DNA of 64,000 bases from a plasmid. Position numbers: made by a program. Below, piece after piece: positions 9,001-18,000 of the stretch. Position 1 is the first letter of the stretch, and each line of letters opens with the position of its first letter. The stretch is from NCBI RefSeq assembly GCF_057098645.1, contig NZ_JBXSPU010000003.1; one strand, 5' to 3'.

Positions 9001-12000
9001 GGCATCAACATAAGGTTCTGCTGTACATTCACCAATAACCAGCAATTTCAACATCGTCATGATTGGGAATTCCCAGAGATGTACGTCGTAGAATCCGGCT
9101 TCTGTTGCGGTCATAGGCTGGTTAGTATTGCTCTTGCCGATGTCGAACTGTGATTTTTGCAGCATGGTTCCCTCTAAAAATGGGCTGCACCACGGACTTT
9201 TCACCACTTCAACAATTTTTACTGGTTGGAAAAAACTTAGCTGCCATCCGATTTCTGGTATCCCATTTTGATCCGTGCAATAGCAACCAGGGCGTGAGGG
9301 GGCGGCACCTTCAGGGGCTGCTCCAATTCCCATGATCCGCATCGGGAAGATACAACTCCAGCAGATGTTTTTGATTAGGCCCTGCCATACTCCCGCTGAC
9401 TGGCACATTGCTCCCGGGACACCGGTATCTGCGGCCATTGTCATTGCAGGCAGCGAGAGCGACAGCATGACAGCGATCAATATTTCCAAAAGTAACTTTT
9501 TTAGCTTCTTCACCGGCACGCTCACTATTTAGTAATGAATGTTGTCACGCTTTCCATATACGCAACCACTTTGTTAAAACACTCTCTCATCTGGTCCGGG
9601 TAAGTTAGCGTCAGCCAAGTGGCCAGCAGCGCCCCAAAAATAAATCCTATTTTCATATCAATTCTCCTCTGCCGCGATTTTTGTTCCAATACCACGTATT
9701 TCAGCTTCACTGAATTGCGTTATACGGAATTTCTCTTTTTCAGTGGAGATCAGCGCTGGCGTGTTTTTTATCTGGAAACGAGCAATAATTTGCTCATTAA
9801 CTTTGAACACCTTCCCATTGAATTTTTCGCGCAGATCATTCAAATGATCCCATCCATTTTCCTGTTTGATGCGCGTGAACATCGGCATCACCTGACCGCT
9901 GCCAAGACGCTGGCGATATTGCTTCTCTGCCCACTCAAGTTGCCCTGGGTTCATTGGGTCAAAAATTATCATTGTGAGGTTCTGCGGGAACCTGGCCAGT
10001 GGGTTAATGAGCTCGCCAGCAGAAGCAATGACGCGACCCTGCTTATCTTTAACGTCCTGAGTAACCCTGATTGTCGGGTCGATTAGCCATTCCTTGTGCT
10101 CTTGAGCGGGAGGCAGATTAACCATGTACTGGTTTTTCCAGGTATCAGCGACTGCTCTCTTCTTGGCGCCGTCCCAGTCGTATTTCTGTGCTCGCTCTTC
10201 GAGCTCTTTAATAATGCTCTTCTCTTCAACCGGATAGGTCGTACCAGCAATCGGGAAAAGATCTTGGTCGGGTTTTCTGGCCAGTTCGCGCTGGAAGAAA
10301 TCAACGTTGAAAGAGCCGACCATTTTTGCAAACCGGGATTGCTCACGGGAGATTATTGTCGGGACCTGCGTGATCTGGTACTGGTTAAATGCGTCCGGGT
10401 CAATCGTAATTAGTGGGGAGTCAAACTTCCCCTTCACCACCAGCTGGTTGATAGCTGCCTGAGTTTCAGGGAGGCGTGTAGTGCCTTTCTTCAGACCATT
10501 AAAAACCACTCTCGCCTTATGTTCTGACGCGGTACGGAGTAGATCTTCCAGGACGTAATCAGGCAAGCTAAATGACGCAAAGATAGTGATACCGTTTTCT
10601 GTCGAGAGCACCTCTTCCCGACTGCTGTCTATTTTACGCTCGAAGTCAGCGGCGGTGATTCCTGATGAACCAAACATCTTTTCGATATTCGAAGACTGAC
10701 TGCGCATAACTTCTGGTTTATTTTCGACGGATTTCAGTGCAGACTCGCTGAGCTGTGAATTTCCCTGAATCTCATCACGTCTGCGAATGATGTCGTTAAC
10801 TGCTTCCGAGTTATTACTCTGAGCGCGGATAGCCTGCGTATGGTCTATAACTGCCTGCACACTGTCAGCATTCATACCCGGGACATAACCGCGATTTGTT
10901 TGCTGACTGAGGTCCCCGTTTTTCTTCATAGCTTCGGCCTGGCGGATGTATTTCTTGGTATCAGGAGAATCCAGAGAACCAGACGGGAGCGGACCTTCTG
11001 ATGCGTGTGGTACCGGTATTTGGGCGCCCAGAACCTGAGCTTGCCTTGCAATGTCATCAGCAACCTGTTGATACTGGGGGCTAGCCACAGCGGTGGATAT
11101 TAAGGCGTAAAATGCCAGACAGGAGGCCAGAGGCTTAATAGTTGTTTTTAATTCAAAAGATCGCATATGTTTTCCCAATAACTGAAGTCAACTTAACCGG
11201 CCCCCAAAAACGTGAGTCCCATGAGTGGTCCGTTTGCCCAATTAAAAAGACCTCCCCTTCCGGAATAGTTAATTCTCTTTCAATGGTCTCGGCAGGTATG
11301 CCGTATTTCACAGAAATACGTCTGGCATTGGCTTTATAAAATTTGTTCCCATTATAAACACCATCCAATGTGACCCTCAGGCGATCTCCGCCGACTCCTG
11401 CCACAATTTTAATAACCTTCTCATTTTCACGTATAAAACGGACTGATTTTGGCATATGAAAAGCTATGATATTCCCTGACCTTACCGATTTATCCTTCAG
11501 ATCGATCATGTAAAAATCAGCAGGTAAACATCCATTTAATAGTCCATGACCAAACGTAAATCGATTAAAAAAAATCAACATAACCAGTATCAGGATTCCG
11601 AGATTTATTGGCACGTACCAATCAAAACTCAGTAAACCACGCTTCTTAGGTATGTATTCTCTCATAACCTACTTCTCTCAGAATCAGAAAGCAAAATGGA
11701 CTGTCTTTTACATTACCTTAAAACCTATTATCCATGTTTTGGTACTTCCTTATTTCAGCAAAGCCAGCTATTTCTGATTATTTACCGCCTTTTTTTCTTT
11801 CATTCCGTCTTTGATTTGTGATTGTCCTGGCCGCTGTCTTACTCATGTAAAGTAACTTTCCCGACGTTACCCCATCAAAAAGTGAAAAACAAAAAAGCCG
11901 GGACATTTCTGCCCCGGCTGTTATTTCATTAGCTTGCCTTACTGCGAGGTTTCAACTGAATCTACGGACTTTGACGCGCCCTCATCCGGACCATAAACGG

Positions 12001-15000: not shown

Positions 15001-18000
15001 TGGCCAGAGCTGCACCGTCCTTAAGCACCATCAGTGTTGGGTTATCAGAAAGCATCAGTTTGCTTTCAGGCTCATTGTACGTAGAGGTATTCTTGCTATT
15101 GTTCTCTACCGTGAACGAGGCGGCATAAGAACCATTCGTCAAGTCTGTTAAGTCAAAGATATACAGATATTCATCGCCGACTTTCTGTGGCCCGCTCACG
15201 GGCTGAAGAGTACGACGTAGCGGTGTTGCCCAGGATTGCTTAAAGTCGATAACCGTACCATCTTCTAAAGTAACTTTTGTTGTCGGCTTAAACACCCCAT
15301 CAGGATTCATCGTTAGCGTCATAGCGGTTGGTAACCACCACTCACCCTCAGTTTCTTCCTGAGGCACTTTGACGGCTACGGCCACCGTTCTAGCTCCTGT
15401 ATAGATCTCCTGTCCACCAACACTTATTGTTTTAGCTTCATCCGTGAAATTCCAGAGAGTATGGTCAACAACAGGAGGACGGTAATCCCAGGTCAGCGTT
15501 AGCTTCTGCGCTTCAGGAGGGGCAAAGTAATTATTTTTCGAATTGGCAGTGACCGTGATTTCCCGTGAACCCATCAGCAAATCCGAATCACTTACTTTGA
15601 TGCTTCCAACATCGATCGTGCAGCCATTCCCACCAATTGCGACTTCGCAAGCTGATCCAGACCCGATAGAGATATATTGCACATAATTGCGAGGCTCTAC
15701 GGAGACAGTGACATTCCTAATTGCTTCATCCTTAAGATAGGATTTAAGAGTGTAACCATCCTGAACCACTCCATTCATAGACGATTTCAGGCCCGTTATC
15801 GTCGGTTTAACCGGTACAAGAGCATTAACTGTATACTCCCCATTAACCACTTCTACTTTCTGCCTTTCTGATCCAGAAAAATAAGAAATTTTATACGGCA
15901 GTTTTAGTTCTCCTGCCGCATTGGGTATCCCTGTTAAATTGAATCCGTTTGCTGTAAAGCCAGAGGTATTTGGAAGCCATTCAAAAAAGCAGACCAAGTT
16001 ATCTACGCTTGATGTCGCACGATCATCAACCGTCACATTGCATGCGTTGCCAGTACCTGAAGCAGTAATTGTATTATTGTTGACGAATGCAACAAAATCG
16101 CCCGGGCCGGGATTAAACGTGGTGACGGCAGGCATATCAGCCTGGAGTTTTCCGGAAATCATAATTGCCTCAGCTTGTACCGATTTAATCGAAGCAATTA
16201 AAGAAAACAACAGGGTTAAACATAAACCTGATTTTCTCATGACGAACACCTGTTTTTTTACGCAGAATTAGAATCACTCTACGTTAAAAAATTCTGAAAT
16301 CTTGTTCGTAAAGAGGAAAAAAAACATTAAATTTTTGCAGGAAATTGAGGTTTTTTAGCTCACTGACCGCTCTTAGACTCAGATAGGCGAAGGGCGGTAA
16401 TTATCGATTCTGAGGATACCCAAGGCATTTTAAGTGTCAGGAACCCCAACAAGAACAAGCCTGTTGAAACGCAATCCATTTGTGTTACGGGAAGGTTATA
16501 ATTTAAAGGCTTAAACGTCCCCATTTTAACCGGTACAATGCTTGCGCTTACCAAAAGGCCCCCACGGTCGTTGGGGCCGATATTGATATTTTTGTAGGCT
16601 TGGTGAGTGCGATGCGTGGTCTTACGCTTTTCAAATTTTAGTGTCGGCTTAATTCTCAGAAAAACAGATGCCAGCGCCATGGCTTCGTTTTGGGATAGTT
16701 TCATGAGAATGCTGCCCTCTGAATTCCATCCATATTCCCTATTGTCAGACGGAGGAGCAAACTGGAGAGACAGGTAATACTTTTCAGTCTCAGTTACAAA
16801 CGCCGAATTATCAGCAGAGCGACTTTTGTCGAGATTTACTTCGAATGCCATCGCGACAGATTGGCTGAATACTCTGACCCGTTGAGGCTTCGCACCAGTT
16901 GCTGACAGATCGCTCATTGTCATACTCTCTTCTTAAAGAACCATGTACCGGACATAACTTCATTATCCTTCGTGTGCGTCAAATCCGAAATAACAAAACC
17001 ACCTTTTCCTTCCGAAATTATCATGGTGTAAGAGCTCGTATGCACAAGGCGGGAATTTTTGACTTGCAGACCCGTACACTTAACTGCAATTTCATTACCC
17101 GGAACTCTCTCAACAAAAGTAACTTTTGATGCAACGCCATTGATATGTACGCTTCCGTTATCTGCTATCTGGATGTTCAACGAAGGTGTGGATTCTTTAT
17201 CACAAGGTTGGAAAACAGAAGTGGTTTTAAGAACTTTGCCAGTAAAATCGTACAAGTCAGGCTTCGACGGTTTTGCGTTAAAGATCGAGTAAGACCCCGC
17301 CACTGTTAAACCAACCATTAAAAGGGGGATTACCTTTTTAAAATTAACTTTCATCCTCCAGTTCCTCTCCAATCAAGTGTAAAGCACTTACGCACATAAG
17401 CCTGAGTTGATACAGCAAATTGTCGGCGGTGATCCCCCCAACAAATGTCACTGTACGGCGTATCGAAACGCCTCCAGGCTCGCATTGAATATGGCCAATA
17501 CCTGCATCGCGAAGGAAATCATTCTCGGCGCTTACCAGGTCTGCTTCAGCAGGCGGAATGACCACTTCGATGAGTATTGTATCAATTGGAGCCCACTCCC
17601 AGTCGTACTTAAGCGATGAAATTGGGGCAATGGAAACATGAAATTCATCAATATTAAAAATGACTGGTTTTTTGCCTGTTGATTTAGGCTGAATGAAGGG
17701 ATTCTCGACCAGGACAACTGGGAATTCAGAAATAGACAGAACTTCGATTAACTGATCTCGACGTAAACCGTGTATTAGTGAGTTGCGTGATAACATTCAG
17801 TCAGCCTTTATTATAATAATCAGATAGTTACACATGATCCCGCTAGTTCCTTACCATCTTCCCGCTTGCAGCGTAGTAACCATTAAGATCTTATGGGTTA
17901 GGGTAACAAAAAAATCTAACTTAACCAGTAAAGCATAGAGATTTTTTACATAAAATAATAAATAAGTACCAATTTTATTAAGATATTTCCTATCTCAGCC

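Follow-up and report, generated by a model that had tools for sequence, protein, structure and literature searches.

Re-identification of the conjugal transfer gene rsp on an R27-like plasmid contig and its relatives in other transfer systems

The rsp gene and its product

Our analysis concerned a gene for a very large, putatively secreted protein on 64,000 nucleotides of plasmid DNA (the window; contig NZ_JBXSPU010000003.1 of RefSeq assembly GCF_057098645.1). An earlier note, made from the sequence alone, had read its product as one of the large immunoglobulin (Ig)-like proteins needed for conjugation of IncHI plasmids, and comparison with known plasmids supports this reading. A megablast search against plasmids returned 284 records, 219 of them with at least 99% identity and the best with 100% over all 4,311 bases, and the best records carry the annotation "rsp: IncHI-type conjugal transfer protein RSP". 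The top match, pYPE10-190k-tetX4, belongs to types IncHI1A, MOBH and MPF_F. When aligned to the large open reading frames (ORFs) of plasmid R27, as the note had proposed, the protein proved identical to R27 RSP (ORF R0009) at 1430 of 1433 residues (99.8%), differing only by an extra Thr at amino acid (aa) 41, V274I and D1396N. R27 RSP has the same flanking genes, the same position in Tra2 and the same Big_3 region, and window positions 281-21188 are collinear with R27 positions 1-20905 at 99.9%. We are highly confident that the window gene is rsp (R0009 of R27), encoding the already published IncHI-type conjugal transfer protein RSP, and that this is the best explanation of the whole; as a re-identification of published RSP the finding is not new. 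A scan of RSP against NCBIfam matched no model, so that the RefSeq product name has no hidden Markov model backing in that library.

The uninterrupted ORF that had been noted on the minus strand at 11939..16249 is present and yields 1,436 aa from a GTG start. On identical DNA, RefSeq annotates the start as the ATG at 16240, which lies 9 nt 3' of the GTG and gives a protein of 1,433 aa. Judged by its sequence context, translation truly begins with the ATG at 16240 and the GTG at 16249 is spurious, since a Shine-Dalgarno-like AGGTG sits 6 nt before the ATG and the GTG forms part of it. By sequence and hydropathy, the N-terminus, MRKSGLCLTLLFSLIASIKSVQA, shows all three elements of a Sec signal peptide (a basic part, a hydrophobic part and V-x-A), in agreement with the signal peptide already suspected; neither A23 nor E24 varies in the family alignment, and cleavage would occur between the two. 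Hydropathy over the whole protein gave no further hydrophobic segments. Thr, Val and Ser are abundant in RSP, and the eight Cys of the mature protein form four close pairs (67/84, 198/207, 530/555 and 1341/1358), all of them invariant in family alignments of homologues with 47-93% identity.

A Pfam search, another of the proposed checks, did find an Ig-like domain in RSP, namely Big_3_3 (bacterial Ig-like group 3; aa 357-498 in the 1,433-aa numbering), although its 23.7 bits lie below the gathering score of 27; other Pfam matches (BNR, PKD) were at chance level only. The Big_3 domain published for R27 RSP spans aa 331-470 (PMC6764697), and the homologues P0001, P0014 and P0016 carry PF13750. 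A sequence search of solved structures with RSP gave one chance-level match (E 0.18). RSP was modelled with AlphaFold2 as two overlapping halves (aa 1-760 and aa 700-1433) from alignments of 12 homologues with 47-93% identity, and both models are almost wholly beta strand (mean predicted local distance difference test scores, pLDDT, of 73.6 and 75.6), as the protein's description as beta-rich had anticipated. The models suggest that RSP consists of some 13 divergent Ig- or FN3-like beta-sandwich domains arranged in a chain, a count estimated from strand clusters and dips in confidence. In Foldseek searches the best matches of both halves were chains of Ig, FN3, cadherin and macroglobulin domains (E 1e-10 to 1e-13), including DSCAM, cytokine receptors, alpha-2-macroglobulins, protocadherins and an S-layer protein as well as RTX adhesin repeats (6xi1, 6xi3) and the Ig-like domains of PrgB (8beg_B); template modelling scores (TM-scores) were low, as expected with differing angles between domains. 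The Ig-like domain and the IncHI homologue that the earlier reading presupposes are both at hand, as the Big_3_3 match with the Ig/FN3-like models and as the R27 orthologue. The protein had also been called repetitive, and this holds for the fold but not for the sequence: self-BLASTP of RSP returned the identity match alone with no internal repeat, and hhalign comparison of the 13 putative domain slices against each other reached a best probability of 12%, so that repeats at the sequence level were rejected.

Huttener et al. (2019) found the 155-kDa R0009 product in the secretome of Salmonella carrying R27 and named it RSP (PMC6764697). In that study, RSP was predicted to be 61% beta strand, its C-terminal region was similar to SiiE and SraP by Phyre2, SSPred predicted type IV secretion, and the protein was detected in cytoplasm, inner membrane and periplasm. 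Deletion of rsp from R27 brought transfer in liquid at 25 °C below the detection limit and a cloned copy restored it, while on filters transconjugants still arose at low frequency. Transcription of rsp was far higher at 25 °C, motility was lowered by RSP, immunogold labelling showed RSP decorating flagella, and donors lacking flagella still needed it. Export was lost in a trhC deletion and regained with trhC in trans (all PMC6764697). TrhC is the ATPase of the type IV secretion system (T4SS), TrhH a pilus-assembly protein and TrhA the pilin. Huttener et al. (2022) reported that RSP co-precipitates with RSP2 (R0055) and TrhH, that release of both RSP and RSP2 needs TrhH and TrhA, and that both label pilus-like filaments (PMC8730810). 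A nanobody and vaccine study was aimed at the C-terminal 280 aa of RSP (PMC11268884). For RSP of the window, the role in secretion and conjugation is assumed by analogy with the 99.8% identical R27 protein.

Gene neighbourhood and transcription

The genes follow each other in the order htdA, htdF, htdK, rsp, trhF, trhW, trhU, trhN, an opposite-strand lipoprotein gene and trhI, the last with a Pfam match to UvrD helicase (Table 1). The genes trhW, trhU and trhN (5262..11166) are F-type pilus assembly and mating-pair stabilisation genes, and cyclisation of the TrhA pilin has been suggested as the role of the trhF product (PMC11722321). This places rsp where the earlier note had put it, between small leader genes (htdA, htdF and htdK upstream) and the TraW, TraU and TraN genes (within trhF-trhW-trhU-trhN downstream); as to the TraF named among its neighbours, a trhF gene is indeed present, but it encodes an S26 signal-peptidase homologue of the RP4-TraF type and not the TraF of the F plasmid. 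The protein was also rightly set outside the canonical F-type set, as no curated F-type Tra family of Pfam or NCBIfam matches RSP, whereas its neighbours match TraU, TraN and TrbC_Ftype. Among htdA, htdF and htdK, Pfam gave a match for htdK only, to Whirly, a family of single-stranded-DNA-binding transcription factors (24.6 bits against a threshold of 23).

That rsp is embedded in an operon is correct for its location, but its transcription is partly its own. Gibert et al. (2020) described an "AN operon" from htdA to trhN with read-through products in reverse-transcription PCR, mapped a separate R0009 transcript besides this read-through, and measured promoter activity upstream of R0009 and upstream of trhP (PMC7366339). 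Our consensus promoter scan gave fewer matches than in shuffled sequence and offered no usable candidate upstream of rsp. Behind the rsp stop codon lies an intrinsic-terminator-like hairpin with a T-run, which fits the separate R0009 transcript. Four lineages, the most distant with 50% protein identity, keep a hairpin and T-run in this position, with differing stems, and such hairpins occur in IncHI2-like, Yersinia-type and 50%-identity loci. The AN operon study mentions a predicted terminator only after htdK (PMC7366339), and the positionally conserved terminator-like hairpin after rsp has apparently not been reported.

Table 1. Coordinates of rsp, its signals and neighbours in the window, and of the relatives compared (P and L numbers in text and table are our handles for proteins and loci)
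Feature	Position	Strand	Details
rsp coding sequence	11939..16240	-	1,433 aa + stop; mechanical ORF reaches GTG at 16249
Shine-Dalgarno-like AGGTG	16247..16251	-	6-nt spacer to ATG; includes GTG
Predicted Sec signal peptide, aa 1-23	16172..16240	-	MRKSGLCLTLLFSLIASIKSVQA; predicted cleavage before EA; hydropathy and sequence
Big_3_3 match, aa 357-498	14747..15172	-	bacterial Ig-like group 3; E 4.2e-05, 23.7 bits
Intrinsic-terminator-like hairpin + T-run	11886..11919	-	10-bp stem, 7 G-C pairs; ~20 nt past rsp stop
htdA	17344-17796	-	annotated transfer repressor; 150 aa; annotation; name from PMC7366339
htdF	16920-17354	-	144 aa; annotation; name from PMC7366339
htdK	16360-16923	-	187 aa; annotated only "plasmid transfer protein"; name from PMC7366339
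trhF (also trhP)	11153..11665	-	S26 signal-peptidase homologue; Peptidase_S26, E 1.5e-20; annotation
trhW	9658-11166	-	Pfam TrbC_Ftype; annotation
trhU	8461-9513	-	Pfam TraU; annotation
trhN	5262-8438	-	Pfam F_T4SS_TraN; annotation
rsp2-like gene	55571-58027	+	818 aa; DUF4165 + Big_3_2 + Big_3_3 (Pfam); annotated "Ig-like domain-containing protein"
Matching hairpins in relatives' loci	L006 ~10322-10353; L004 ~12286-12312; L003 ~4408-4443		
Full-length RSP relatives	L007 9001-13224; L008 9001-13230; L009 9001-13095		25-28% identity; Vibrio-type metagenome contig (L007), Neiella (L008), Motilimonas (L009)
IncC Big protein compared	L010 6493-12024		WP_000606833.1 on pVC1374; pKAZ3 type is ALG87338.1; compared against window 11942-16240 and 55523-58027
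IncC protein aa 14-812			aligns to window RSP2-like aa 27-828 of 834-aa ORF; 27% identity, E 2e-60
IncC protein aa 837-1834			aligns to RSP aa 373-1406; 24% identity, E 3e-64

Further along the window, an IS21-family element (21189-23317, with istA at 21289-22461 and istB at 22458-23258) is an insertion by comparison with R27 and pYPE10 and lies about 5 kb from rsp, where it interrupts a metallophosphoesterase gene beside a parM partition module. A degenerate tandem-repeat array (~28000-30480), with a period of roughly 52 bases as read from staggered BLAST offsets, lies between a parA/parB module and trhC and differs from R27 in length and sequence (97-98%, with indels).

RSP relatives beyond IncHI and the IncA/C protein

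RSP has been described in the literature as restricted to IncHI. A word-indexed homologue search with RSP also gave the impression of a narrow family, with only 14 clusters, all at least 50% identical and including Photorhabdus and Yersinia. This impression was overturned by an exhaustive HMMER scan with RSP aa 24-1223, which retrieved 271 representatives at E <= 1e-3, of which 121 reach E <= 1e-30. Many of these relatives are about 1,400 aa long and collinear with RSP from end to end at 23-28% identity; members with a named source belong to Vibrio, Neiella, Paraglaciecola, Motilimonas and Shewanella. Tblastn gave matches on 2,961 plasmid records, 1,552 of them below 60% identity. Specifically, we compared the loci of three distant full-length relatives, from Neiella, Motilimonas and a Vibrio-type metagenome contig (L007, carrying P0016, whose cluster members come from Vibrio). 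On all three contigs the RSP relative lies directly upstream of genes for an S26 peptidase, TrbC_Ftype (TrhW), a small ORF, TraU and TraN, and an opposite-strand gene of ~270-290 aa follows TraN; in Neiella and Motilimonas this gene is in turn followed by one for a UvrD-type helicase, whereas the Vibrio-type locus ends earlier. The order RSP, S26 peptidase, TrhW, TraU, TraN is kept at 84%, 60%, 50% and 25-28% identity, and the same gene order is found on large Klebsiella plasmids typed IncHI1B. On a Pseudomonas MOBH/MPF_F plasmid, an RSP relative lies between traV and traA. The RSP family reaches well beyond IncHI, and this extension has apparently not been reported.

The window also encodes a protein whose predicted domains match the published architecture of RSP2/R0055 (PMC8730810). 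Its start, MRKILTGCIIATAIASVYPAAA, is signal-peptide-like, and a longer form of the ORF (55523-58027) has 834 aa. RSP2 of R27 contains Big domains and is secreted; it attaches to pili and flagella and is co-precipitated with RSP. It is shorter than RSP, has the architecture DUF4165, Big_3_2 and Big_3_3, and is absent from IncHI2 (PMC8730810). A comparison of RSP with RSP2 gave no detectable similarity (E 0.07), and at the detectable level the two were rejected as paralogues. Just upstream of the rsp2-like gene, a 584-aa ORF (53180-54934, plus strand) encodes DUF4942 and a weak methyltransferase domain.

Both proteins have counterparts in a single protein of IncA/C plasmids. The 1,843-aa Big protein of pKAZ3 is secreted and required for transfer at 25 °C; it is dispensable at 37 °C and has no effect on motility (PMC8730810), whereas RSP lowers motility. 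We compared the IncC protein of pVC1374, which is encoded in the pilus cluster of a MOBH/MPF_F plasmid between traA and dsbC-traC, and not upstream of an S26 peptidase as RSP is. Its N-terminal ~810 aa correspond to RSP2 and not to the first ~370 aa of RSP, and most of the remainder aligns to RSP; this second alignment is weak over RSP aa 373-500, the firmly shared part being roughly aa 500-1410, in which the Cys pairs 530/555 and 1341/1358 are kept. By these alignments, the IncA/C Big protein combines an RSP2-like N-terminal half with an RSP-like C-terminal part of ~1,000 aa in a composite, and the homology is solid. Since both alignments hold and RSP itself is not similar to RSP2, the R27 partners match two halves of one IncA/C-type chain, which fits the co-precipitation of RSP with RSP2 and the RSP-dependent release of RSP2. 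We found no report of an RSP2-RSP composite in the IncA/C protein, in a literature search of incomplete coverage. An N-terminus of the same kind, with DUF4165, Big_3_2 and Big_3_3, is found in P0069, another long member of the family. Four other long relatives (P0015, P0033, P0035 and P0040) combine the full RSP region with an N-terminal extension; none of these extensions contains DUF4165, so that not every long family member is of the RSP2-RSP type.

A broader reading, which we hold tentatively though not far short of probable, is that RSP is no peculiarity of IncHI but one form of a family widespread in MOBH/MPF_F systems (IncHI, IncA/C, Pseudomonas, and marine Vibrio, Neiella and Motilimonas), of which the IncA/C member joins both halves. 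If this is true, the IncA/C composite gives independent support to RSP and RSP2 acting as one unit, and the N-terminal ~370 aa of RSP, missing from the composite, become a candidate docking region for RSP2 or the pilus.

Export, role in transfer and comparison with known systems

The following route is proposed for RSP. The Sec system would deliver the precursor to the periplasm, where the signal peptide would be removed and disulfides would form. Such a periplasmic route is suggested because of the predicted signal peptide, the invariant Cys pairs and the published detection of RSP in the periplasm (PMC6764697). The elongated chain would then leave the cell with, or through, the growing H-pilus, unlike a T4SS substrate taken from the cytoplasm. 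At the surface, RSP and RSP2 would coat pilus and flagella, and this coat may help donor-recipient contact to form or to persist, which would matter most in liquid and at low temperature.

Several points weigh against this account. The sequence support for Ig domains is weak, consisting of a single sub-threshold Pfam match, and the models were built from 13 related sequences, with an unreliable domain arrangement (predicted template modelling scores, pTM, of 0.32-0.52) and low confidence for aa 1-67. The published model is that of a T4SS-exported RSP (SSPred, trhC/trhH/trhA knock-outs), but these knock-outs also remove the pilus, so that direct secretion through the channel cannot be distinguished from passive co-release with pili or from shearing; cleavage of the signal peptide is a prediction. 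Flagellar binding or a braking of motility cannot be the main role, since flagella-less donors need RSP (PMC6764697). A cryo-electron microscopy preprint on the H-pilus, which describes assemblies of TrhA pilin and phospholipid, makes no mention of RSP in its text (PMC11722321), and the function of the window allele is taken over from the R27 protein.

RSP might instead be a structural or assembly part of the H-pilus, such as a tip or side-bound minor subunit, its binding to flagella being incidental and its role not mainly that of a motility brake or general adhesin. The co-precipitation with TrhH and the release dependent on the pilin TrhA (PMC8730810) would suit such a part, as would the requirement for RSP in flagella-less donors (PMC6764697) and the constant position of the gene beside genes for pilin or pilin maturation (S26 peptidase in IncHI-like and marine loci, traA/traV in IncC and Pseudomonas). 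However, R27 without rsp gives some filter transconjugants (PMC6764697), so channel and pilus partly work without it, transfer at 37 °C does not need the IncA/C relative (PMC8730810), and the silence of the preprint on RSP tells against a pilus subunit as well; we consider this alternative possible but on the whole unlikely.

An improbable alternative, although the published wording implies it, is that RSP belongs to the classical T4SS substrates and would be taken up in the cytoplasm to pass through the channel energised by TrhC. Its TrhC-dependent export, restored by trhC in trans, and the type IV call of SSPred (PMC6764697) are what such a substrate would show. The published T4SS export could however be indirect, because the trhC, trhH and trhA mutants all lack pili, and the predicted N-terminal Sec-type signal peptide, the four invariant Cys pairs and the periplasmic detection (PMC6764697) are at odds with recruitment in the cytoplasm.

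It is very improbable that rsp is mere plasmid cargo, encoding an adhesin or virulence factor of the SiiE/SraP type for attachment to host cells or surfaces, and sits in the transfer region by chance, for despite the C-terminal similarity to SiiE and SraP (PMC6764697) and the RTX adhesin repeats among the fold matches, its synteny with pilus genes holds to 25% identity in unrelated hosts, its deletion abolishes transfer with complementation (PMC6764697) that also argues against a polar effect on trhF-trhN, Pfam to E = 1 gave no RTX/type I secretion system (T1SS) C-terminal signal, autotransporter barrel or cell-wall anchor, and SiiE-like sequence repeats are absent by self-BLASTP and hhalign.

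RSP is exposed on the surface and needed for the transfer of IncHI plasmids, through which resistance to colistin, to tigecycline and to multiple drugs spreads; work on vaccines and nanobodies has already taken it up as a target (PMC11268884). To the published RSP, the wider family, the IncA/C composite and the conserved terminator are modest additions. RSP relatives accompany many MOBH/MPF_F transfer systems, and the combination of RSP2-like and RSP-like parts in IncA/C suggests one shared mechanism, with shared antigenic regions across groups of resistance plasmids; the comparison of RSP with the IncA/C protein also singles out candidate regions for partner binding.

Similar arrangements are known from PrgB, the aggregation substance of Enterococcus pCF10, from SiiE and from RTX adhesins, which are likewise surface proteins, encoded on plasmids or chromosomes, with tandem Ig-like domains that promote cell contact. 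None of them shows sequence homology to RSP, and the domains of RSP are not sequence repeats. PrgB and the giant adhesins are exported and anchored by LPXTG or T1SS, whereas RSP would depend on Sec and on pilus-dependent release.

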